From the sequence record MN850621.1: a DNA stretch of 64,000 nucleotides; one strand, written 5' to 3'. The position numbers were made by a program, and so were the translations under genes. Origin of the DNA: Escherichia phage dhabil. The notes below the pieces were generated by a model. The model was not told the DNA's origin. It did not search any database and saw nothing but the letters and a program-made list of their open reading frames with translations. Below are positions 3,652 through 63,059 of the stretch, piece by piece (position 1 is the first letter of the stretch; every line of letters starts with the position of its first letter).

Positions 3652-3777
3652 AATATTTTCCTCAGAAGTTAAAGAATACACGTACATGGTCAATCATAAA
3701 AACTATTGGGAAAATGCTCAATACAACCAATAACACAAACATGTTCCAAATTGCTTTAAGTAAGTTTTTCATAATCA

Positions 3778-3827
3778 TCTCCATTAGTTGATAGGTCTAT
3801 AATATCATGTCTAATGGAGATGTAAAC
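3778..3827 (-). promoter_or_regulatory. promoter cassette with RBS-pairing stem
   Basis: Minus GTTTAC (3822-3827), N17, TATTAT (3799-3804); 10-bp arms 3778-3787 / 3811-3820, right arm contains the SD GGAG. Confidence 0.6.
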
Positions 3828-4225
3828 ATTGATTGTTATCATTATTACTGGAAATAATATCACTCATATTAAGCGCCAGAACCTACTCAAACCCTGCGCT
3901 CCCAATTTCAAGGTTAGAGCGGTTGTCAAAGATTTTGCACCGACCTTTAACCTGGCTGGATGCGTAGAACTCCGCAGTTTCTTGAACATCAAAAGCATAC
4001 AACCTTGTTTCTAAATCGCGATAACGTGGTTCGCCGTTAAGTTCAAACCAAATCATAATAGTTACTGGGATCATTTTCGGGTTCCTTGTTTGTTGGTGTA
4101 TGAGTACTATAACATGCTAAATCTGAGATGTAAACTGATTTATGCTAATTTCCACAACAATAAACTAAAGCATATACAAATAATTGGAATACAAGTCATC
4201 CAAATAAGGCACCACGTTTTGCTAC

Positions 4226-15057: not shown

Positions 15058-15344
15058 TTAACGTACCTCATAAGGTCTCGGATTTGGCCAACAGTATAGT
15101 CTTCAATATAAACCGAAGAGATATTGTCATCCATCAGTTTTTGCACTGCAATAAAATCGCTTTCAATCTCTTTAAGTGAATGCAAGACCTTATGAGCCTT
15201 GCCACGGATATTTGTATCGTCTGGGTCGACCTTAATAATATATTCCGTCTCGAATTTCAACTTATAAAATTGGTCTTTAGTTACTTTAATCATATTTTCC
15301 TCAAACATAATAGGCATCAGTACGAGCACGGGTAATACTAACAT
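15054..15344 (-). CDS. hypothetical protein, 96 aa
   Basis: ATG at 15342-15344; between dexA and dda. Confidence 0.45.
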   Translation of the reverse strand: MLVLPVLVLMPIMFEENMIKVTKDQFYKLKFETEYIIKVDPDDTNIRGKAHKVLHSLKEIESDFIAVQKLMDDNISSVYIEDYTVGQIRDLMRYVK

Positions 15345-16632
15345 AAGCCAGCTGTGAAGCTAAATTCGCATCAGCCATGTGCATACACGGAGTATAGATG
15401 AAACTGTTTTGGACAGTAAGGCCCTGTGATTTATGAACAGTGCTCACCGGAAGAGCTCTAACCTTAGTGAACATTCGCTTGGCTTTCCAGAAATCAGCCC
15501 ACTTAGGTTTCTTACCGGTTCCACGCATAGCCTTGTACTCAGTAGCCACCTTAGCCAAGAAATAATGGAACTTCTCAACTGAAGCCTCATCAATAACTTT
15601 CAAGTGTTCTACATAGTACTCGTCATCCTCATCAATAGATTCAACCTGGAGGTCCCAGTAATTAATCATCTGGCGAGTGCCTACATCCTTGGCAGACAAG
15701 AACAATGAGGTATGGTTCACATCTAAAATACGAACCATTTGCCCGTTATTAAAAATGGTTTCAGAGAATTTCTTACCGTCGTATTCAAGCTCCTTCATAA
15801 AAGGCTCTTGCATCACGAGGATTTCACCCTTGATATAAGGCGCATCGGTTTCATAAAGCTTTTTACGAATAATGCTATTCAGCTTTTCAACCGATTTATT
15901 CGTATAAGCAAACATCCGGTTCTCAAACAAGGCATCGGCATCTTTTACGATGGAAAAATAATTCATCATAAAATCTTTTAAGGCTGTTTGAGATTTGAAA
16001 CCATGGACACCATGGCCTTCGAATATACAATCTCGGAACCATCCACCATTACGGATTTCAGTAGCAACCTCAATGATAGGAGCATTACTACGCATTACTT
16101 CAGTAAGGTGTAGCTGTTTAATTTTAGGGTGGGTAAAGAATGGAGACAACTGAGGACTACCATCACTTCCAGGTTCTACTGGCTGTAACTGAGCTCGGTC
16201 GCCAATCCCTAGTACAGTGCACCATGGTGGAACCGATGCTTCGATAATCTTAAACAACTTACCGTCAATCATTGAGCCTTCGTCGACCACAAGAACATTA
16301 CATTTGCTCAAGTCAGGAGCTTCACGCTGTTCAAAAATATCCTGGTCTTCGTATGTAGTCGGGTTAATCTTTAAGATTCGGTGGATTGTCGATGCTTCTT
16401 GGCCTGCGAGTTTCGACAATACCTTCTTGGCCGCGTGTGTGGGTGCGGTCAAAATAACTCCGAGTTCGCCATTCTTGACTAAGTGGTCAAGAATAAATTT
16501 AGTAAGGGTCGTTTTACCTGTACCGGCAGGACCATTCAATGTAATCCATTCGCCCTTACGTCGTTTAATAGCTTCAATGATTTCTTTAAAGGCCGTCCTC
16601 TGGCCGATGTTCAAGTCTTCAAATGTAATCAT
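15301..16632 (-). CDS. dda: Dda SF1 DNA helicase
   Basis: 443 aa; Walker A GPAGTGKTT; N-terminus collinear with T4 Dda as recalled. Confidence 0.9.
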   Translation of the reverse strand: MITFEDLNIGQRTAFKEIIEAIKRRKGEWITLNGPAGTGKTTLTKFILDHLVKNGELGVILTAPTHAAKKVLSKLAGQEASTIHRILKINPTTYEDQDIFEQREAPDLSKCNVLVVDEGSMIDGKLFKIIEASVPPWCTVLGIGDRAQLQPVEPGSDGSPQLSPFFTHPKIKQLHLTEVMRSNAPIIEVATEIRNGGWFRDCIFEGHGVHGFKSQTALKDFMMNYFSIVKDADALFENRMFAYTNKSVEKLNSIIRKKLYETDAPYIKGEILVMQEPFMKELEYDGKKFSETIFNNGQMVRILDVNHTSLFLSAKDVGTRQMINYWDLQVESIDEDDEYYVEHLKVIDEASVEKFHYFLAKVATEYKAMRGTGKKPKWADFWKAKRMFTKVRALPVSTVHKSQGLTVQNSFIYTPCMHMADANLASQLAYVSITRARTDAYYV

Positions 16633-17679: not shown

Positions 17680-17708
17680 GATATTTTTCTCATCTTACGG
17701 ACGATTAG

Positions 17709-17748
17709 TTGATAGGTCTATAGTATCATGTTGCTTAATAAAGTAAAC
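17709..17748 (-). promoter_or_regulatory. T4-early-type promoter cassette
   Basis: Exact core TTGATAGGTCTATAGTATCA; minus GTTTAC (17743-17748), N17, TACTAT. Confidence 0.6.
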
Positions 17749-17817
17749 ACTTTTTTGCTTTAAATTTTCGACGGTATAATGAATCAAGGACTTTGCCTTT
17801 CAATTAAACCGGGTGGT

Positions 17818-20895: not shown

Positions 20896-20960
20896 AGTGT
20901 TCTCCTCTATAAGATAGGTCTATCTTAACTCGGTCCAATAAGAAAGTAAACCATTAAAAA

Positions 20961-20984
20961 CGAAAAAAGGAACCCGAAGGTTCC
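20961..20984 (-). terminator. intrinsic terminator, UUCG loop
   Basis: Stem GGAACC/GGTTCC 20969-20984, loop cgaa, minus-strand TTTTTTCG; same stem as the terminator at 637-652. Confidence 0.65.
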
Positions 20985-20990
20985 TTATAA

Positions 20991-25330: not shown

Positions 25331-25334
25331 TTTG

Positions 25335-25383
25335 TTCTCCAAGTTGATAGGTCTATAGTATCATGCCTACAGGAGAAGTAAAC
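25335..25383 (-). promoter_or_regulatory. promoter cassette with RBS-pairing arms
   Basis: Exact 20-mer core; minus GTTTAC (25378-25383), N17, TACTAT; arms ttctcc/ggagaa. Confidence 0.6.
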
Positions 25384-25390
25384 CCTTAAA

Positions 25391-25412
25391 ACAAAAAAGG
25401 AGCCGAAGCTCC
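25391..25412 (-). terminator. intrinsic terminator, UUCG loop
   Basis: Stem GGAGC/GCTCC 25399-25412, loop cgaa, minus-strand TTTTTTG; directly after the gene 41 stop. Confidence 0.6.
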
Positions 25413-36722: not shown

Positions 36723-37085
36723 TTAATTACCAATGGTATACTTAGACAATAGTTCCCAGTCATTTTTCTGTTTAAAGGAAATGACACGGAAATTATTAGT
36801 AATTTCGAACAATTCAGAATCGTCTACAATATCAATAAGTCCCCAATCCTTAAGAAGCTGGGCGATAGAATCGCGGCGTTGGTAGTCTTCACCATCGATA
36901 TCTACCTGGCGACCGTCCATACGCAACATCTCTTTAAAGTGGACAATATAATACCGTCCTTGCTTTTGCAAAATGTGGCAGGATTGATATAGTTTCTTTT
37001 CTTTATTATTAGCGATACCCATACGAGTCAGGGTCTCTTTCACTTTTAGGAAGTCTTCAGGTTGCTTCAGAGTAATTTCAATCAT
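36723..37085 (-). CDS. regA: RegA translational repressor
   Basis: 120 aa; MIEITLKQPEDFLKVKETLTRMGIANNK...NNFRVISFKQK matches T4 RegA as recalled. Confidence 0.85.
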   Translation of the reverse strand: MIEITLKQPEDFLKVKETLTRMGIANNKEKKLYQSCHILQKQGRYYIVHFKEMLRMDGRQVDIDGEDYQRRDSIAQLLKDWGLIDIVDDSELFEITNNFRVISFKQKNDWELLSKYTIGN

Positions 37086-37664: not shown

Positions 37665-38614
37665 TGGAGCTCCAGAGCAAGTTGGATAAAAAGATAAGTC
37701 AGGTGAATTTCTGGGTTAGCAGCAATACCATGGTATTGGTTATTTTCACCGACGATTTCATACATTCTAACAATGCTTGGCCCAGGCAATTTACCATAGA
37801 GTTCGTTAGCCAATGTCATAATAAAGTTGGTATAATCATTGACATGACGTGGAGCTAATGCACGGAGTTCTTTAAAGTTTTTATCTTTCAGTGCAGCCAC
37901 TACTTCATCAATAGGCGAATTGGTATTCATTACAATACTCAAAATGCCTGTATCGATTTTACCACTTGAGGAATAACGGTCTAGTTGGTTAACTGTTTTA
38001 CGGAAGTCAGGGAAGTTTTGTTTAACTAAAGCAGCAATAACTTTAAGGTCTTCGACTTCGATATTTTCGTTTTTACAAATTGCTACTGCACGATGAATCA
38101 TTTCTTTCATCATGGTTGTTTGGTCAGCTGGAGTGGCTTCACCAAATTTAATTACGCGACAACGAGATTGAAGTGGACCGATAATACCGTCAATATTGTT
38201 TGCTGTAATAATTACAGAACAGTTTGAGGAATAGGCCTCTAAGAATGAACGAAGGTGGCGTTGAGCTTCAGCAACACCAGCACGGTCGAATTCGTCAATA
38301 ACAATTACCTTACGTTTACCTTCGATAGATTTAGAAGATGCAAAACGAGTAAGTTCGTTACGAACGAAATCAATACGACAGTCGGAACCGTTAACAAACA
38401 ACATGTCTGAATTTGTATCAGCACACAATGCTTTAGCCACGGTAGTTTTACCTGTGCCTGGTGAAGCAGAGACTAGGATAATGTTAGGGATTAGGCCCTT
38501 ATTAACAATGGCTTGGAGAGTTTCTTTATCATGAGCAGGCAGAATACATTCAGATAAAGTACCTGGACGATATTTCTGTTCCCACATGAATTCATTATTA
38601 TTTACTGTAAGCAT
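37655..38614 (-). CDS. 44: clamp loader large subunit (gene 44, AAA+)
   Basis: 319 aa; Walker A SPGTGKTT, Walker B VIVIDEFD. Confidence 0.9.
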   Translation of the reverse strand: MLTVNNNEFMWEQKYRPGTLSECILPAHDKETLQAIVNKGLIPNIILVSASPGTGKTTVAKALCADTNSDMLFVNGSDCRIDFVRNELTRFASSKSIEGKRKVIVIDEFDRAGVAEAQRHLRSFLEAYSSNCSVIITANNIDGIIGPLQSRCRVIKFGEATPADQTTMMKEMIHRAVAICKNENIEVEDLKVIAALVKQNFPDFRKTVNQLDRYSSSGKIDTGILSIVMNTNSPIDEVVAALKDKNFKELRALAPRHVNDYTNFIMTLANELYGKLPGPSIVRMYEIVGENNQYHGIAANPEIHLTYLFIQLALELQWL

Positions 38615-38675
38615 ATTAATTTCCTCAGGTTTGTTTTTACATTATACTCCAAGGGAGGAATTTCCTCCCTATGCT

Positions 38676-45369: not shown

Positions 45370-45610
45370 TTAAATAATCCTCAAATTCATTTAATGTCAT
45401 GCCTTCGTCCCAAGCTATTTTAGGATCGGGCATTTTCATATAAGTGGTCTTAGAGCTTATAGGAAATATCCTGAAATCGCGATGACTTCCACTTAACATA
45501 TTAGCCGCTTTTATAATAGTTTCACTATTATTCATCATAGGGGTACGTTGGAAACCGGCTAAAGATTTAAGGACTATTATAACCGATACATCTTCAGGCA
45601 AATTACTCAT
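45362..45610 (-). CDS. hypothetical protein, 82 aa
   Basis: ATG at 45608-45610. Confidence 0.4.
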   Translation of the reverse strand: MSNLPEDVSVIIVLKSLAGFQRTPMMNNSETIIKAANMLSGSHRDFRIFPISSKTTYMKMPDPKIAWDEGMTLNEFEDYLND

Positions 45611-45936
45611 TTAGCAGCCTTAACAATTTTCAGGTCAACGAATTTTTTCTTACGTTGATTCTTCATACGACGGATGGTTTTGTCCGTGATTTCACCCGGG
45701 CACCAAGCTTTAGATTCGACACCAAAGGCGGCCACATCAAACTCGTCGAGAATATATTGAACCAGGATTTCACGAATACCGTTCTTACCAATTTTTTGGT
45801 CTTTAGAGTGCATGATTGGTAACAGTTCAGCAACCCATTGGTCAAGAACCTGAGGAGTTACAAAGCCGGTTTTCATCAGTTCGTTAACTTTATCGAAAGC
45901 GAAAGAGTTCAGTACGTTTTTAATAGCTTGTGACAT
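45607..45936 (-). CDS. hypothetical protein, 109 aa
   Basis: ATG at 45934-45936; initiation region identical to that of the gene at 52456-53301. Confidence 0.45.
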   Translation of the reverse strand: MSQAIKNVLNSFAFDKVNELMKTGFVTPQVLDQWVAELLPIMHSKDQKIGKNGIREILVQYILDEFDVAAFGVESKAWCPGEITDKTIRRMKNQRKKKFVDLKIVKAAK

Positions 45937-45966
45937 AATAATTTCCTCAGTTTAAAATTTATAATC

Positions 45967-46005
45967 CGTGGGACCATTATACTCTGGTCCCAAGAGTTTG
46001 TAAAC
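45967..46005 (-). promoter_or_regulatory. early promoter with flanking inverted repeat
   Basis: Minus GTTTAC (46000-46005), N18, TATAAT (45976-45981); arms gggacc/ggtccc. Confidence 0.5.
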
Positions 46006-46895: not shown

Positions 46896-47085
46896 AATTT
46901 AATTTCCTTAGCTATCGAACAAAATACACCACGGTCACAAATCATTTTAATATTAAGGTCAATTATGGTATACCACACGTCCAGGCTAGATATTTCAGTT
47001 ACTAGAACAGCTTTGCCGTTGATTGAATAATACTGGTTGACTTTAATTTCTTTATCTTGGATAGTCATAATGTTCTCCTCATGTG

Positions 47086-47126
47086 TTGATAGGATAGACT
47101 ATAACACGTGAGGAGAGGAAGTAAAC
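47086..47126 (-). promoter_or_regulatory. promoter cassette with RBS-pairing arms
   Basis: Minus GTTTAC (47121-47126), TATAGT at N16; arms cctcatgtg / cacgtgagg. Confidence 0.5.
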
Positions 47127-47127
47127 A

Positions 47128-47445
47128 CTAATCTTCAATTAAATCTCGGTCATAGCCAAGCTCAATCAAAAGGGATTTGAAGGCAGGAATATTTTCTATT
47201 TTCTTATTATCAACAAAGATTACAGGATAGCGTATAGCTAAGCTCTTGAAGCCTGCACGTTTGGCCAATGATACTATAAGAGGCTTGTCATATACTGCGC
47301 CTGACGGCGTCTGATTAATCACAGGATAGAAAGTATGTGGGATAGAAAGGGAATTTAGGAGCGATAGAACTGCAATGCACCCTGGACAGCGCATGACTGT
47401 CTCAGGTATACCGTAAATCTCAATTTTAGTTAACTTTTGGTCCAC
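47128..47445 (-). CDS. thioredoxin-fold redox protein with CPGC active site (glutaredoxin/NrdH-like)
   Basis: Beta-strand KIEIYGIPE followed by CPGC; likely GTG start at 47443-47445 with SD AAGGAG; the 159-aa ORF-track form overlaps the upstream gene. Confidence 0.5.
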   Translation of the reverse strand: MDQKLTKIEIYGIPETVMRCPGCIAVLSLLNSLSIPHTFYPVINQTPSGAVYDKPLIVSLAKRAGFKSLAIRYPVIFVDNKKIENIPAFKSLLIELGYDRDLIED

Positions 47446-47722
47446 AGGAAATAACTCCTTGGTAGTCCCAAGTTTTGATAACTTCGTCTTCATTAGTTCC
47501 ATATGGGATGTAAATCTGGATAAGGAACCCGGTATCATCAAAAGAGAAGTAGACCGTAGGTTTAATACCGTGAATCTCTGACAGAGCATAGATGTCCTTG
47601 AGGTCATCTTCCTTATCTTTAAAGAATTCTGGGTTCAGGTCACAGTCATGGAAGTACCATTCTTGGCCAAACTTGTCCCAAGCACCCCAATCAGTAGCTA
47701 CATATTCTTCAAAACGTTTCAT
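47426..47722 (-). CDS. hypothetical protein, 98 aa
   Basis: ATG at 47720-47722. Confidence 0.4.
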   Translation of the reverse strand: MKRFEEYVATDWGAWDKFGQEWYFHDCDLNPEFFKDKEDDLKDIYALSEIHGIKPTVYFSFDDTGFLIQIYIPYGTNEDEVIKTWDYQGVISCGPKVN

Positions 47723-47934
47723 TCTTTAACCTTCATCATTTTAGAAATAACACTATGGACAGACTGGATTCGTTTTTCGAACTCAGACTCTTCAAGACCC
47801 TTTTCAGTACTCAGCGCACCAATCATCACAAACAGCAATCCGAATGGGATGACCAGGATTAAAAGACACACAATAAACAGGACAAATGTAATATTGGCCA
47901 GGATATCAGAAACAGCGTTACGAAATTTATTCAT
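47719..47934 (-). CDS. small membrane protein, about 71 aa
   Basis: ORF-track start is GTG at 47946; ATG at 47932-47934 used; one transmembrane helix. Confidence 0.35.
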   Translation of the reverse strand: MNKFRNAVSDILANITFVLFIVCLLILVIPFGLLFVMIGALSTEKGLEESEFEKRIQSVHSVISKMMKVKE

Positions 47935-48055
47935 TAAAGAACCCACATATTAGTTACAACAAATAACCATTGAGCAGGATACTCAACACCCATAATACGC
48001 CCTGCATCGTTCAGAGATTCAACTAGAGCATAGAATGTGTAGCCATAAAAATTAA

Positions 48056-48529
48056 TCATTTAAGCGATTTCCTCAGTTGTTTTTTAAATGAATCAACCAT
48101 TTGTTTTTTGGTATCAGATTCATTATAAGTCATTCCGTGTGAAAGCATTTCAGCAATCATTTCTTCCTTACCTAATCTACTGAACTCTTTGGTTTTATCA
48201 GGAACGAAATTAGGATGGATATTGTTTTCGGTATAATCAGCTTTTAGATAGACCAGCAAATTCTCTAACCATTCGAGGTAGTCAACGTTTTGACCTTTAA
48301 GACCAGAACGGTTGAACTTATGCTTCATTTGTCCTTCTGCAGCATTGCACAGGTTACATAGTAAACCACGAACCTTACCGGCTTTTGGCCCGTTCAATTC
48401 ATGGTCGTGGTCAAGGTGGTTACTTTGAACATCAGGGTTTAATTCACGTTTACAAATCAAACACTTACCATGTTGTGCATCATAAAGTTTTTGTTTTTCT
48501 TCTTTGTATAGTTTGCCAGTCAACAACAT
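48056..48529 (-). CDS. 49: endonuclease VII, Holliday junction resolvase (gene 49)
   Basis: 157 aa; HLDHDHELNGPKAGKVRGLLCNLCNAAEGQ matches T4 endonuclease VII as recalled. Confidence 0.9.
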   Translation of the reverse strand: MLLTGKLYKEEKQKLYDAQHGKCLICKRELNPDVQSNHLDHDHELNGPKAGKVRGLLCNLCNAAEGQMKHKFNRSGLKGQNVDYLEWLENLLVYLKADYTENNIHPNFVPDKTKEFSRLGKEEMIAEMLSHGMTYNESDTKKQMVDSFKKQLRKSLK

Positions 48530-50010: not shown

Positions 50011-50218
50011 TTTCGTCTCGCTCAAATTTGTGCTTACAATGACGGCATTTATACTGAAGCGGATTATGACGCCATTGAATCAACTGGACCTGTTCAGTTC
50101 CACATTCAGGACAATTTGGAACATTCTTAGAAGCTCGTTCGCGACGTTCGACAATTTTAATAATTTGATTCCAATCAGGAATAGTTTGGTCGATATCATC
50201 GGCTAATTGATATTTCAT
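49997..50218 (-). CDS. zinc-ribbon protein, 73 aa
   Basis: CPECG...CRHCKHKF, four-Cys ribbon. Confidence 0.45.
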
Positions 50219-51225
50219 TTCAACAGCTCCAGAGCTTGTTCAAGACGGTCTAAACGATTGGTAGACTCTTCCCAAAGTTTCTTGGCAGCGGTATATTGGC
50301 CAGTCAGTTTTTTGTTAATAGCAAGGGCATCTTTATACGCTTTTTCTAAGGCAACGATTTCCGGTAACTTGGATTTAGTAATTGGTGTAGGAGCCATGAT
50401 AGGGCTATTCAAGTCATTAATCAAGTCTTCTAATGTAGCAGGCTCTTTATCGGTGTTCACAATTTCCTCACATTTTTCTTGGTAAATTTCAGCATCGGTT
50501 TTTGGAACAGGACATTTGATTTCGCGGACTTTTACTAAGACCTCGTATCCTTTCCAGCCATAGAAATGTTTTACTTCTTGAGTCTCATATTTCTCTACTG
50601 TATCCATAAAAGCTAAGGCTTGTTCGATAATATTCAAGGTGTCGTAAGCAATATCTTGATACTTTACAACTTCCGCGTCATCTTTAGGTTTCCTATTAGG
50701 TGACCAAATAACAGAAATAATAGCTTTTCCTTTATAACTATTTGTTTTAATCATGCAATTAGCCATAGGGTGAATAGTACGGGAATCACCAGAAACTATG
50801 GTTTTAGAGGCCGCTTTGAGAATTAATGCAGAGTTAGCCTTAAATTCGCTAGTCCAACGCTGTGGAAATAGACCACTAGGATCCATACCTTTCATTTTGA
50901 TATAGCTTTTTAAAACATCACCAAACCATTGGTAGCTAACAACGTGGCTGGAACCTGGGTGTTTCTCTTTGCCAAACTCTGAAAGGATATCCTTATTAAC
51001 CAGCCGCGAAAGCAGTCGAGAACCTTTAAATGTATCTATGATATCAGGGATAAACAAACGCCCTGCAATCTTTTCTATTTCAGATTTAAAATACAGCGAC
51101 AAATCTTCGTCAATTTGGTCTACCCATTTATTGATATTAGAAACTATCACCTCATATGGGGTTAATGGAGGGGTATTGTCAGTGATATACGTAGTAAAGG
51201 CATTGATGTATTCAGTACGGGTCAT
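50215..51225 (-). CDS. hypothetical protein, about 336 aa
   Basis: ORF-track start 51285 lies in the promoter; moved to ATG 51223-51225 with SD AGGAG; C-terminal coiled-coil-like tail. Confidence 0.45.
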   Translation of the reverse strand: MTRTEYINAFTTYITDNTPPLTPYEVIVSNINKWVDQIDEDLSLYFKSEIEKIAGRLFIPDIIDTFKGSRLLSRLVNKDILSEFGKEKHPGSSHVVSYQWFGDVLKSYIKMKGMDPSGLFPQRWTSEFKANSALILKAASKTIVSGDSRTIHPMANCMIKTNSYKGKAIISVIWSPNRKPKDDAEVVKYQDIAYDTLNIIEQALAFMDTVEKYETQEVKHFYGWKGYEVLVKVREIKCPVPKTDAEIYQEKCEEIVNTDKEPATLEDLINDLNSPIMAPTPITKSKLPEIVALEKAYKDALAINKKLTGQYTAAKKLWEESTNRLDRLEQALELLK

Positions 51226-51242
51226 GATATTCTCCTCAGTAG

Positions 51243-51283
51243 TTGATAAAAGGATTATACTCCATCCGTCCTTGGATGTAAAC
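51243..51283 (-). promoter_or_regulatory. T4-early-type promoter cassette variant
   Basis: Minus GTTTAC (51278-51283), N18, TATAAT (51254-51259). Confidence 0.5.
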
Positions 51284-51284
51284 A

Positions 51285-52178
51285 TTATTTTAGAGCTAAT
51301 AGTGCCGCGCGAAGCTTGTCACGCTGGTTTTCCATATTCTTGATGCGATTAAGAACGTCTTGAATACTCTTTTTCTCATCTTCAATCTGGCCATTTAAAC
51401 GATGGATTGATTCCTGGATGCTATCTGCATAATAGGTCTCAATAGGTTTCATCGTAGGGTTAGTAACAACCAAAGAATTATCGGGTTTAATTTTCCAATG
51501 ATACGGTTCGGAATTGAATGGACTGGGCACCGCGGTGGTTTTGAATTTGTCATAGGCTGCATACTGGCCTACGCTGTCACATGATACTGCAGAGATACGA
51601 CGTTCCATTTGTGGGTCCTTTTGTTGGGATTGATAAGGGGCATAAGATAAAAGATATTCGCGAGTTAGTTTAACTCTTATATACACTGCATCGGCTTGCC
51701 CTGAACAATCGGCATATTCATCGGTTGTAACTTTATACGATTCTACTGCCTTAATACGGGTCATTGCTTCCCTAAATAAGGTTTCGAATGCTTCACGAAG
51801 GGCCTTATTACCTTTTGAGGTAGGACGGAAACGAACTTGGATACCGTCAGCCAGAATATTAATGACCAGGTTACGAGCCGTAAAATTAATATTCTTGATA
51901 TTAACAGGAACCGTAGAAATACGTCCTGCGGTAGCCAAGAGGTCTTTGATATTAGCTCGTAATGTTGCACCAAACAGGTGGGCTGGGCGACGGCAATAAT
52001 CGTTCAAAGAAGAAATATAAGTTCCTTTACGACCTACGCCATAAGTATAATTACCATTACAAATATGACCAAAGTCAGCTAGCCGATCGATAGCGATACG
52101 ACGAGTCGTGTCATGGTCGTATATAGAGTATTCTTTACGTGTTTTAATATTCATATTAAAGTCCAAATAATTTTTCAT
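51285..52178 (-). CDS. hypothetical protein, 297 aa
   Basis: ATG at 52176-52178; alternative coupled start at 52152-52154; no motif recognised. Confidence 0.45.
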   Translation of the reverse strand: MKNYLDFNMNIKTRKEYSIYDHDTTRRIAIDRLADFGHICNGNYTYGVGRKGTYISSLNDYCRRPAHLFGATLRANIKDLLATAGRISTVPVNIKNINFTARNLVINILADGIQVRFRPTSKGNKALREAFETLFREAMTRIKAVESYKVTTDEYADCSGQADAVYIRVKLTREYLLSYAPYQSQQKDPQMERRISAVSCDSVGQYAAYDKFKTTAVPSPFNSEPYHWKIKPDNSLVVTNPTMKPIETYYADSIQESIHRLNGQIEDEKKSIQDVLNRIKNMENQRDKLRAALLALK

Positions 52179-52371
52179 AGAATTTAGCGATAGGCCAAAA
52201 CACCATCATAATGACCAAAACAACCCAAAGTAGGGGCCATACTAGTGTAATGAATACTGCATCATAGCTTGATTCAATTTCGATTGGATTCCAATCACCT
52301 GATTTATGAATGATAAAGGTCGTCATAAATCCTAGCACAAAGTAAAGGAGAATAAAACCTAAGATTTCCAT
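52156..52371 (-). CDS. small membrane protein, 71 aa
   Basis: ATG at 52369-52371; two hydrophobic segments. Confidence 0.45.
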   Translation of the reverse strand: MEILGFILLYFVLGFMTTFIIHKSGDWNPIEIESSYDAVFITLVWPLLWVVLVIMMVFWPIAKFYEKLFGL

Positions 52372-52455: not shown

Positions 52456-53301
52456 TTAATCCTTAAGAAGATTTAGGATATCGATATATTTCCGGCGTTC
52501 AGCCTTAGCTTTGGCATTCAGACCAGAGAGTCGGAAAATCTCATCATCTTGTTGTTGGATTGTAACATTCAAGCAAGTAAGCAAATTGCTAAAATACTCA
52601 ATCTGGGCTTGATGTTTCTCATTGCTGCGCACTGGTACAGGTTCCATTTTAGGAGCTTGTTCTGAATGCTCTTCAGCCAGGTCTTTAATTTTATAAAGTT
52701 TAATACGTTGGCCTACTCCAGTTTCAGCATCACCAAAACTAAGAACACCGTGTTGTTCTAATTCAGACAGGGCCAAGCGCAGATGGAACTTCCAGTTGTC
52801 ATATTGACAACCACTAAAAGTTGAAATGGTATACTCATTTTCATTTCCAGGGTGGTTAACAATATTAAAGATAATCCAATCACCTGAACCGTTAGTCTTA
52901 AATGTCATTTGTTTATCAAGACCTTTTGCAAGTCGAGCGCCAAGAGCCAGTAGACGTCGTTGGTTGGCATGAAGGTCTTGAACAACTTCACCAAATGACA
53001 TCGCCGGGATTAAACGACCATAAAGGTCGTAGCCTTTGTTATAATTTTTAAGAATAATTTTGGCATTAGCACGAGACAACATACCTGTTTTACGAAGAGT
53101 TTTCATGACCCGGTCTTCTAACGTAAACGAACCTTTAGTCTTGTCAAAGATTTTAATAAAGTCATCTTTAACAGTACAAACATTGAACTTGTCCCACATC
53201 ATATATAGGACCTTTTCAACCACTTCTTTAGAACTAGGAATACGACCAAATTTAACAACTTTTTTAACTTCAGAACGAATTTGATTAATTGCTTGTGACA
53301 T
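52456..53301 (-). CDS. hypothetical protein, 281 aa
   Basis: ATG at 53299-53301; first codons MSQAI and the 25-bp initiation region are identical to 45926-45950. Confidence 0.45.
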   Translation of the reverse strand: MSQAINQIRSEVKKVVKFGRIPSSKEVVEKVLYMMWDKFNVCTVKDDFIKIFDKTKGSFTLEDRVMKTLRKTGMLSRANAKIILKNYNKGYDLYGRLIPAMSFGEVVQDLHANQRRLLALGARLAKGLDKQMTFKTNGSGDWIIFNIVNHPGNENEYTISTFSGCQYDNWKFHLRLALSELEQHGVLSFGDAETGVGQRIKLYKIKDLAEEHSEQAPKMEPVPVRSNEKHQAQIEYFSNLLTCLNVTIQQQDDEIFRLSGLNAKAKAERRKYIDILNLLKD

Positions 53302-53364
53302 AATAATTTCCTCAGTAAGTAATTAAGAACCTAGAACCATTATACCATCCTTGGTATAAAGCGT

Positions 53365-53889
53365 TTATGCGAGAACCGTCTTTAAACGCTCTTCAAATTT
53401 CTGAAGCAGAGCTTGGCGTTCAGCTCGTTGTGATTTGTACTGCTCGATACGACCTGAAGTGAGGGCGTACTGTTCGTTTACTGATTCCCGCATAAATTCA
53501 GGAATCTCTTTACAAGCTTTGATTTCGTCAAACTTATCAATAACCGCTTGTTGTTCGGCAATTAAGTTATCAAAATAAGCGATATCTGATTTAACGTTTG
53601 CCAGGTCAGATTCAGTAGGCATTAAACGTTTATTACGCTCAGCTTGATAAGCTTGGTTGGTTTCACGACTCCAGTGAAGAGTACGTTTTTTGTTGGTGTT
53701 TTTGTAGAGCTCTACAATACCAACTGAATCGATGACAGCAATCCAGTTCCAACGGCTTTTGTAAATCTCTCCTCCAGATACGGTAATCTCATTACCACAA
53801 GCAACGTCATTAAAGAACTTGCTTTGTTTTTCGGATTTGAAATTACCATTGTTAAAATTAATCAGTGAAAAAATATCTTTAGCGTTCAT
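53365..53889 (-). CDS. hypothetical protein, 174 aa
   Basis: ATG at 53887-53889; coiled-coil-like C-terminus. Confidence 0.45.
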   Translation of the reverse strand: MNAKDIFSLINFNNGNFKSEKQSKFFNDVACGNEITVSGGEIYKSRWNWIAVIDSVGIVELYKNTNKKRTLHWSRETNQAYQAERNKRLMPTESDLANVKSDIAYFDNLIAEQQAVIDKFDEIKACKEIPEFMRESVNEQYALTSGRIEQYKSQRAERQALLQKFEERLKTVLA

Positions 53890-53895
53890 GATAAC

Positions 53896-53944
53896 CTCCA
53901 GTAGTTGATAGGTCTATAGTATCATTTCTACTGGAGATGTAAAC
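53896..53944 (-). promoter_or_regulatory. promoter cassette with RBS-pairing stem
   Basis: Exact 20-mer core; minus GTTTAC (53939-53944), N17, TACTAT; 9-bp arms ctccagtag / ctactggag. Confidence 0.6.
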
Positions 53945-53946
53945 AA

Positions 53947-54288
53947 CTAATAAAAACTTTTTTCACCGGCTTGTCCACTAAACCATGCGGATTGGGTGTT
54001 CTCTTTCCGTTGATGTTTAATACGAATAAGGTATTCATTCCTGATGGCACAGAGTTCATCTCTGAAGTCGCCTGCCAACTTAACCTGCTTACGGTCTAGA
54101 TTTATTAAGGCTTGGGTCTTCGCTGCCAAGAGCAGTCTCTTGTAGTCTCCTTCTTCACAATCGGTTTTGTAAACCTTCTCAGCGAATTGGTGTTTAAATT
54201 CATTATCATAGTCTTCAATAGACTGTTTCATGGCATTAGAGTATTTCAACTCTGCTTTTATAAGGTCATAACTAAATTGTTCGAACAT
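53947..54288 (-). CDS. hypothetical protein, 113 aa
   Basis: ATG at 54286-54288. Confidence 0.4.
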   Translation of the reverse strand: MFEQFSYDLIKAELKYSNAMKQSIEDYDNEFKHQFAEKVYKTDCEEGDYKRLLLAAKTQALINLDRKQVKLAGDFRDELCAIRNEYLIRIKHQRKENTQSAWFSGQAGEKSFY

Positions 54289-55279: not shown

Positions 55280-55306
55280 TATATTCTCCGTTTCACTCAG
55301 TAGATT

Positions 55307-55345
55307 TGATAGGTCCATAATAACATGCTCTACGAGAGGGTAAAC
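55307..55345 (-). promoter_or_regulatory. T4-early-type promoter cassette
   Basis: Core TTGATAGGTCCATAATAACA; minus GTTTAC (55340-55345), N17, TATTAT. Confidence 0.55.
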
Positions 55346-55362
55346 TCTTTTTTGCACTAAAC

Positions 55363-55386
55363 CCAAAAAAGGACCCCGAAGGGTCC
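55363..55386 (-). terminator. intrinsic terminator, UUCG loop
   Basis: Stem GGACCC/GGGTCC 55371-55386, loop cgaa, minus-strand TTTTTTGGG; with the adjacent promoter it repeats the 573-652 cassette. Confidence 0.65.
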
Positions 55387-55581
55387 TAAATTGCGCTCCA
55401 ATAATTATGGAAGCGGATATTATTGATAGCCCAGTTAATACACCGTCTTATCTGCTTAGACGTAGGCTTGCATACGTACTTGAAATTGATTCGTCTACCG
55501 GTTTCTCTACAAACTACTTCAAGATACCAACGACAGGTTTTATGAGGTCTTCCATATGACAGGAAAACCTTGATTTCTTCT

Positions 55582-58792: not shown

Positions 58793-58800
58793 TTTATTCT

Positions 58801-58849
58801 CCTCATTAGTTGATAGGTCTATAGTATCACGTTCCTAGAGGATGTAAAC
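58801..58849 (-). promoter_or_regulatory. T4-early-type promoter cassette
   Basis: Exact 20-mer core; minus GTTTAC (58844-58849), N17, TACTAT. Confidence 0.6.
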
Positions 58850-58858
58850 ACTAAAACG

Positions 58859-58884
58859 AAAAAAGGTCCCACCGAAGTGAGACC
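58859..58884 (-). terminator. intrinsic terminator, UUCG loop
   Basis: Stem GGTCCCAC/GTGAGACC (one mismatch) 58865-58884, loop cgaa, minus-strand TTTTTTCG. Confidence 0.55.
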
Positions 58885-62718: not shown

Positions 62719-62726
62719 TTTGTAAT

Positions 62727-62775
62727 CTCCTGTAGTTGATAGGTCTATAGTACCACGTCTACAGGAGATGTAAAC
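62727..62775 (-). promoter_or_regulatory. promoter cassette with RBS-pairing stem, upstream of regB
   Basis: Minus GTTTAC (62770-62775), N17, TACTAT (62747-62752); 9-bp arms ctcctgtag / ctacaggag, right arm contains the SD. Confidence 0.6.
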
Positions 62776-62780
62776 TGCTT

Positions 62781-63059
62781 TTAGTATTTTTCCTCAGGTT
62801 GGAAAACGGAACGACAGGCCCACATGGATGCTTCTTTCAAGCGTTCGATTGCCGTACGAATCTGGGCGAGGCGTTCATGAGTAAGGTCGAATTCTTCATC
62901 ACTCATTTTATCAACACCGGAGCATGTAAAGGCTTCAACATATTCTTCTTCTAATGCTTTAAAGATTAAGCCCAATCGAACTTCAGCATCTTTAATGGCA
63001 TTCACTTTACCGATTTTATCGTCGGTATGTGGCTTGTAACCTTTGATGTCTTCAATCAT
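62781..63059 (-). CDS. hypothetical protein, 92 aa
   Basis: ATG at 63057-63059. Confidence 0.4.
   Translation of the reverse strand: MIEDIKGYKPHTDDKIGKVNAIKDAEVRLGLIFKALEEEYVEAFTCSGVDKMSDEEFDLTHERLAQIRTAIERLKEASMWACRSVFQPEEKY

Follow-up and report, generated by a model that had tools for sequence, protein, structure and literature searches.

We analysed a stretch of 64,000 nucleotides from Escherichia phage dhabil (MN850621.1), referred to here as the window, which is 99.6–100% identical to Escherichia phage CLB_P2 and places the phage in Dhakavirus (JS98 group), Tevenvirinae. Two genes of the minus strand were compared. Gene A (45607–45936) encodes a protein of 109 aa (MSQAIKNV...) that is the homologue of T4 55.2 and was assigned to Pfam DUF7570 and to phrog_1475; in T4, the 55.2 product inhibits topoisomerase I of E. 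coli (PMC4396842). Gene B (52456–53301) encodes a protein of 281 aa (MSQAINQI...), the homologue of T4 nrdC.6, and was assigned to PF26899 (Phage_T4_Y05B) and phrog_2257; gene B was found at ≥60% identity in ~85 records. The block between the two gene starts includes gene 49 and nrdC. Dhakavirus genomes have no nrdD/nrdG between gene 49 and the 55.x genes (window positions 47000–48100), while T4, SG1 and the Gapriverviruses, compared through VR20 and EAWsc9, have them there; for this reason the distance from gene A to gene B is 7.4 kb here and 10–12 kb in those phages. Members of the nrdC cluster (50215–51285, 51285–52178, 52456–53301 and 53365–53889) were also observed to have similar heptad-like C-termini (...LEQALELLK, ...LRAALLALK, ...DILNLLKD and ...ERLKTVLA, respectively), which hints at a common coiled-coil tail or at distant paralogy among nrdC.3 to nrdC.8.

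The two genes are preceded by promoters of different classes. Upstream of gene A, we found an early-type sigma-70 promoter on the minus strand (45976–46004; TTTACA-17 nt-TATAAT, 11/12), the -10 element of which sits in the loop of an inverted repeat, GGGACC...GGTCCC (45970–45991, minus strand). RNAalifold on eight relatives kept five pairs of this inverted repeat, two of them with compensatory changes, at only -1.0 kcal/mol. A candidate hairpin is retained with altered stems (GGGAGT...ACTCCC, GGGTCA...TGACCC) in relatives L059, L134, L135 and L118, the last being the metagenomic contig ena:ERZ27245996:k123_278436, and T4 has a terminator-like hairpin without a promoter at the homologous place. 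The gene A leader also contains, within GATTATAAATTTTA (45955–45967, minus strand), the motif TATAAATT, which lies between the early promoter and the Shine–Dalgarno (SD) and matches, at 7/8 positions, TATAAATA, which we take to be the T4 late-promoter consensus.

Upstream of gene B, a middle-type (MotA-box) promoter was assigned on the minus strand (53339–53362), with GCTTTA at 53362–53357 and, after 12 nt, TATAAT at 53344–53339. This element (cGCTTTA-12-TATAAT) was read from the sequence, as the promoter scan found no -35, and the Mot-box consensus behind the call is one that we assumed, in part after PMC4122927. The only stem-loop candidate upstream of gene B was a 5-bp ATACC...GGTAT, invariant in relatives. 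Window positions 53332–53439, where nrdC.8 ends (3') and the Mot-box promoter lies, are 86–90% identical to T4 and SG1, and the same level of identity was observed across hundreds of Tequatrovirus genomes (~15310–15420 in T4, our L001). The Mot-box promoter precedes nrdC.7 in T4 and SG1, and nrdC.6 in Dhakavirus, Gaprivervirus and L118. The break in gene order relative to T4 falls exactly at the gene B leader, where nrdC.7 is missing in Dhakavirus; a 71-aa membrane ORF is found downstream of gene B instead (52156–52371).

A preliminary description of the window had reported an identical 25-bp sequence at the starts of the two genes. This was borne out, and the identity proved to be one base longer. 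In particular, the 25-mer GCTTGTGACATAATAATTTCCTCAG has exactly two copies in the window (45926–45950 and 53291–53315), there is no third copy in the window when up to three mismatches are allowed, and the number of copies expected by chance is 0 (100 shuffles). The exact identity covers 26 nt (45926–45951 and 53291–53316), and the repeat grows to 32 nt (45920–45951 and 53285–53316) with one mismatch allowed; the two copies are 7.4 kb apart. The anatomy of SD, ATG and first codons (MSQA...) given for the two minus-strand genes was also correct. Read on the minus strand, the repeat is aCTGAGGAAATTATTATGTCACAAGC, composed of the SD GAGG, the spacer AAATTATT (8 nt, AU-rich), the ATG and TCA CAA GC, and it covers positions -15 to +11 relative to both ATGs. 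Copy 1, the gene A initiation region (45926–45951, minus strand), has its SD at 45945–45948 and its ATG at 45934–45936, followed by codons 2–4 (TCA CAA GC). Copy 2, the gene B initiation region (53291–53316, minus strand), has the SD GAGG at 53310–53313 and the ATG at 53299–53301, again followed by codons 2–4.

For the comparison of start pairs, 104 of the 134 starts called in the window were kept (ATG with a credible SD). Genes A and B had an in-register identical run of 26 nt, compared with 17 nt for the runner-up pair among these 104 starts, and the run never exceeded 19 nt in column-shuffled start sets. An independent-column model gave 3e-7 such pairs expected, a naive figure because the leader belongs to a preferred class with strong SD. 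Identity of at least 8 nt after the ATG was reached by three start pairs in the window. We thus confirmed that the repeat is real and that base composition alone is an insufficient explanation for it.

We found no RNA family in the whole window with the Rfam gathering scan. The minimum free energies of the two leaders were -6.2 and -3.9 kcal/mol (z = +0.75 and +1.97 against shuffles); leader folding was therefore no better than in shuffled sequences, and a regulatory hairpin that would hide the SD was rejected. Two further candidates were rejected. The SD region of both starts reads CUGAGGAAA, without the GGAG that the RegB endoribonuclease target requires (PMC3014915), and a RegB cleavage site was excluded because of this absence. 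An antisense promoter on the plus strand (GTGACA-17 nt-TAAAAT, 45930–45958) overlaps copy 1 only, and shuffled sequences would be expected to give as many hits.

Comparison with relatives indicates that both start regions are old and were inherited vertically, each within its own gene family. Gene A starts with MSQAIKNV behind a (C)TGAGGAAATT-type leader in many T4-like genera, including phages with a T4-like nrdC.6, and its pattern, (C)TGAGGAAATT...ATG TCn CAR GCn ATY AAA AAC, shows free synonymous variation. Divergent gene A starts were found in T4 (MTIQIKNA) and Gaprivervirus (MTASITN). The gene B start MSQAIN is common to Dhakavirus, Gaprivervirus and a metagenomic relative of 58% identity, and residues 3–4 vary stepwise: CAA GCA here, CAA GTA in L117 (MSQVIN), GTA GCA in SG1 (MSVAIN), and GTA GTA in T4 (MSVVIN; nrdC.6 starts with MSVVINNV). 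L117 is too short to include gene A and contributes gene B only. Such stepwise variants are what ordinary point evolution would give, more than copying of the coding part as a block. Gapriverviruses retain TGAGGAAATTATTATGTC(A/G)CAAGCAATTAAT at gene B despite a quite different gene A start; EAWsc9, L133 and L134, for example, keep tTGAGGAAATTATTATGTC(A/G)CAAGCAATTAAT while the start of gene A is entirely different. At both loci, the region from -15 to +45 is 87–97% identical between lineages whose gene bodies are 40–70% identical in nucleotides.

The identity between genes A and B was absent in T4, where the 55.2 and nrdC.6 leaders differ, and likewise in SG1; it was also absent in Gaprivervirus (VR20, EAWsc9, L134), where gene A starts with MTASITN behind a different leader. 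Among the nine Dhakavirus-group genomes compared, the exact 25-mer was present at both loci, with a 26-nt run, in CLB_P2 and JS98, while gene B reads CAG for CAA in 6 out of the 9, leaving a run of 23 nt. Phage NC-G, which has GCA in gene A, also has the exact 25-mer at both loci and showed an A/B run of 29 nt. Wobble differences, such as the CAG of gene B, arise freely, and among the genomes compared only these three thus have the exact 25-mer at both loci.

The leader was also found in front of other genes. GAGGAAA is present in the same register in seven genes of the window, and 6 out of the 7 read GAGGAAATT. The 17-nt leader CTGAGGAAATTANTATG has four copies per genome in each of the five Dhakavirus genomes that were tabulated, where it heads 55.2, nrdC.6, gene 44 and an ORF of 109 aa. 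In the window, the start region of gene 44, which encodes the clamp-loader large subunit, reads CTGAGGAAATTAATATG (38612–38628, minus strand) and matches the A/B leader and ATG at 16/17 positions. The fourth gene, the 109-aa ORF, lies directly behind another ORF, which resembles what we take to be motA, and has no promoter upstream. Outside the window, this ORF (MNKLNIVNELRR...) was observed at loci L112, L060, L069, L090 and L092 with the identical 17-nt leader CTGAGGAAATTATTATG, after which it reads AACAAGCT, that is, the ACAAGCT of gene A moved by one base. In IMG/VR, CTGAGGAAATTANTATG was found ahead of ~35 ORF families that are unrelated to one another and belong to widely differing phages. 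We infer that the repeat is a generic translation start and probably a strong one.

PeSL elements combine an early promoter with a stem-loop, followed by the SD and start codon, and PmSL elements use a Mot-box promoter; both are repeated, adjoin indels and bring about shuffling in the hyperplastic regions of T4-like phages (Arbiol et al. 2010, PMC2839356; Comeau et al. 2014, PMC4122927). As promoter parts we looked for TTTACW-N17-TAYWAT (sigma-70-like, early) or, for PmSL, a Mot box (TGCTT) with a -10. Early promoter-leader cassettes of the form GTTTAC-N17-TACTATAGACCTATCAAC...GAGGAG...ATG were abundant in the window before unrelated genes, all on the minus strand (235–308, 552–643, 3775–3848, 17688–17779, 25331–25404, 53892–53965, 55285–55376, 58797–58870 and 62723–62796). 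They look like this phage's version of PeSL elements, and most of the remaining long identities among the window's gene starts are due to them. GC-rich, terminator-like hairpins (AAAAAAGGAACCCGAAGGTTCCTT, minus strand) are repeated at 626–655, 20958–20987 and 55360–55389 and adjoin promoter cassettes.

T4-type phages recombine at short homologies, and concerted evolution by gene conversion is a general phenomenon. In L118, the starts of genes A and B are identical over 19 nt and over 38 nt with 3 mismatches, and both contain the lineage-specific block TCATTCAATGAGGAAATTA, which has only these two copies in 20.9 kb (0 expected). No other gene B leader has the 8 nt that this block carries upstream of the SD; Dhakavirus reads TTACTTAC there and Gaprivervirus TAATCTAT. 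At positions -14, +12 and +15, the two genes change together from lineage to lineage. Specifically, gene B agrees with gene A at -14 in Dhakavirus (C/C) and L118 (A/A) but departs from it in Gaprivervirus, which has lost the remaining homology; GCT in gene B is confined to L118, whose gene A likewise reads GCT; GCA in gene A is confined to NC-G and L007, in both of which gene B reads GCA; and gene A has ATT in Dhakavirus, the same as gene B, and ATC in most genera. Changes away from identity were found as well, at -3 and +6 in gene B of L118 and at +9 in gene B of Dhakavirus. The comparison covers ~5 independent lineages: an IMG/VR profile scan for gene B returned only Dhakavirus, Gaprivervirus and T4-type copies, and L118 remained a singleton lineage in a homology search seeded with its protein. 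The co-variation between A and B is suggestive of occasional short-tract ectopic gene conversion, the simplest reading of these lineage-specific agreements (the L118 block and the three tracking positions). The proposal of a recombination junction in the preliminary description therefore stands in part: the co-variation suggests short-tract exchange, but the sequence is not a module boundary that arose in this phage, since both genes have long inherited their start regions vertically.

Several other explanations were weighed. That genes A and B are diverged paralogs, with the identity as a remnant of common ancestry, has hardly any probability. Both products start with MSQAI(K/N), and both families conserve M1 and I5 as well as an Asn at residue 6 or 7; however, BLASTP found no similarity between the two products (E=59), hhalign of family A (21 sequences) against family B (16 sequences) aligned residues 1–8 only, with a probability of 3%, and the proteins differ in length (109 vs 281 aa) and in their Pfam and PHROG families. 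The products otherwise differ, as had been claimed, and the two genes are not full-length paralogs; the refutation that the preliminary description had itself proposed therefore does not apply. A shared operator over the AUG for RegA or another RNA-binding regulator, through which 55.2, nrdC.6, gene 44 and the fourth ORF would be shut off together after the early period, seems unlikely. The window encodes a regA homologue of 120 aa (MIEITLKQPEDFLKVKETLTRMGIANN..., 36723–37085, minus strand) between genes 43 and 62, a candidate trans-acting translational repressor; its assignment draws also on what we take T4 RegA to be, and a 'translation repressor protein' is annotated at the matching position of phage EAWsc9. 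RegA represses ~30 mRNAs at sites that are A+U-rich and unstructured, have a 5' A tract and lie over or directly beside the AUG, and these sites have no discriminating consensus (SELEX consensus aaAAUUGUUAUGUAA; gene 44 site AAAUUAUGAUU); T4 55.2 and nrdC.6 are not named as targets in the review that describes them (PMC3014915). The A/B starts fit this description, the candidate site being A+U-rich, overlapping the AUG, with a 5' A tract and no stable structure. Their sequence GAAAUUAUUAUGUCA matches the SELEX consensus at 12/15 positions, the best of the 104 window starts, although so undiscriminating a consensus makes this a weak criterion. In addition, their leader is nearly that of gene 44, a classical RegA target in T4. 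Against an operator, almost any AU-rich strong start resembles RegA sites, the same 17-mer heads genes of phages unrelated to T4, and the start regions of T4 55.2 and nrdC.6 are different. Other genera vary their leaders and wobble positions freely within GAGGAAA and an AU-rich spacer, which argues against a sequence-specific operator reaching +11. Decidedly unlikely would be a Dhakavirus post-transcriptional regulon (gene 44, 55.2, nrdC.6 and the ORF downstream of the motA-like ORF) with an operator kept uniform by gene conversion, in which RegA or another RNA-binding protein would be the recogniser. If RegA did bind here, a topoisomerase-I inhibitor homologue and a gene of the nrdC cluster would join the RegA regulon, and the site would be an unusually well-defined natural operator.

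The identity could also be the 3' end of a mobile PeSL/PmSL-type cassette moved as a unit, with the two copies as sites at which the intervening 7.4-kb block could be deleted, inserted or exchanged, which we regard as very unlikely. Gene A does have an early promoter whose -10 lies inside an inverted repeat, and gene B a Mot box with a -10, both with SD and start codon at the 3' end; replacement adjoining the element between related phages was found at gene B, whose Mot-box promoter drives nrdC.7 in T4 and nrdC.6 here, and the window holds many copies of another promoter-leader cassette (families D1–D3 and D7). The upstream regions, however, have in common only GTATAATGGT and the start region of 26–32 nt, and outside these parts the A and B cassettes gave no meaningful alignment. 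Since the promoter classes differ and the stretches from the -10 to the SD are unrelated, we filed the pair as start-region microhomology belonging to the same broad phenomenon and not as a PeSL copy pair. Further points against a moved cassette are the fourth gene, which carries the identical 17-mer directly behind another ORF with no promoter, the failure to find any genome with a deletion or hybrid junction between the two repeats, and the presence of gene 49 and nrdC in the intervening block. Finally, coincidence or convergence without copying, in which a preferred strong SD and spacer evolved twice, MSQAI arose by chance and constraint keeps the identity, is possible, though on balance we doubt it. 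It is favoured by the generic leader, found before ~35 unrelated families and at four genes per Dhakavirus genome, by an 8-nt identity after the ATG that is not rare (three window pairs), by the ancestral state of each start in its own family, by the stepwise variants at residues 3–4 of gene B, and by the fact that scanning many windows yields such tails of the distribution. It accounts less well for an identity of leader and coding sequence of 26 nt against an observed maximum of 17 and a shuffled maximum of 19, for the 8 further non-consensus bases that the two L118 starts have in common upstream of the SD, and for the tracking of -14, +12 and +15 between the genes.

We assign a probability of about one half to the reading that a strong start region is kept alike by purifying selection together with occasional short-tract gene conversion. 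On this reading, ribosomes load at the repeat on two unrelated early/middle genes (the 55.2 and nrdC.6 homologues); its GAGG SD, AU-rich spacer of 8 nt, AUG and A-rich first codons lie in an unstructured leader, and the same 17-nt leader also serves gene 44, the fourth Dhakavirus ORF and many unrelated phage genes. Each gene has long retained the segment as a conserved island, both families independently beginning M-S-x-x-I-(K/N). The anatomy, the non-paralogy, the conservation, the distribution of the leader and its lack of RNA structure were shown by the analysis, while strong translation, selection and gene conversion are inferred. The near-perfect identity of A and B would then be an ancient likeness that purifying selection preserves at both starts and that is periodically re-homogenised by short-tract ectopic recombination between sites 7.4 kb apart, a concerted evolution of microhomology akin to that of T4-like promoter/SD cassettes. 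The Gapriverviruses are counter-evidence to the gene-conversion part, since they hold the gene B start without a similar gene A, and selection alone can therefore maintain it. The repeat is a statistically unusual but biologically ordinary feature of T4-like phages and not a new regulatory device. If concerted evolution is the correct explanation, microhomologies as short as a ribosome-binding site and four codons would be exchangeable between unrelated genes of T4-type phages, the shuffling described for PeSL promoter cassettes would extend down to the translation start, and such pairs would be an easy marker of ectopic recombination in genome comparisons. If neither conversion nor RegA recognition holds, the pair would serve as a calibration, indicating that identical 25-nt starts can arise between unrelated genes of AT-rich phages.

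Among known systems, ectopic gene conversion between short repeats resembles the present case in that similarity within a genome exceeds orthologous similarity between genomes at several positions; here the tract is extremely short, the partner genes are non-homologous, and the evidence is comparative. The RegA operators of T4 and RB69 (gene 44, rIIB, dexA; PMC3014915) are likewise AU-rich and unstructured, overlap the AUG and have a 5' A tract, and the near-identity of the A/B leader to the gene 44 leader of this phage, together with the presence of regA, adds to the likeness. RegA would need no identity as far as codon 4, which the A/B repeat, a candidate operator, does have. With PeSL/PmSL elements, the repeat shares the character of a short conserved regulatory sequence that ends in SD and start codon, stands before unrelated genes and is proposed to recombine, one copy lying behind an early promoter with a candidate stem-loop and the other behind a Mot-box promoter. 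It is unlike them in that the common part is limited to SD, ATG and first codons (26–38 nt) and the extended -10, and in that the identity enters two different coding sequences by 8–11 nt; the major cassette family of this genome (GTTTAC...TACTATAGACCTATCAAC...GAGGAG) is, moreover, a different sequence from the A/B repeat. Finally, generic strong start regions of phages (SD GAGG/GGAG, AU-rich spacer of 5–9 nt, A-rich early codons) agree with the repeat in all elements and in their spacing, they likewise have no secondary structure, and unrelated phages have the same 17-mer ahead of genes that are themselves unrelated. Unlike in such starts, a coincidence of 26 nt between two genes, which is rare in one genome, is present here and co-varies between lineages.
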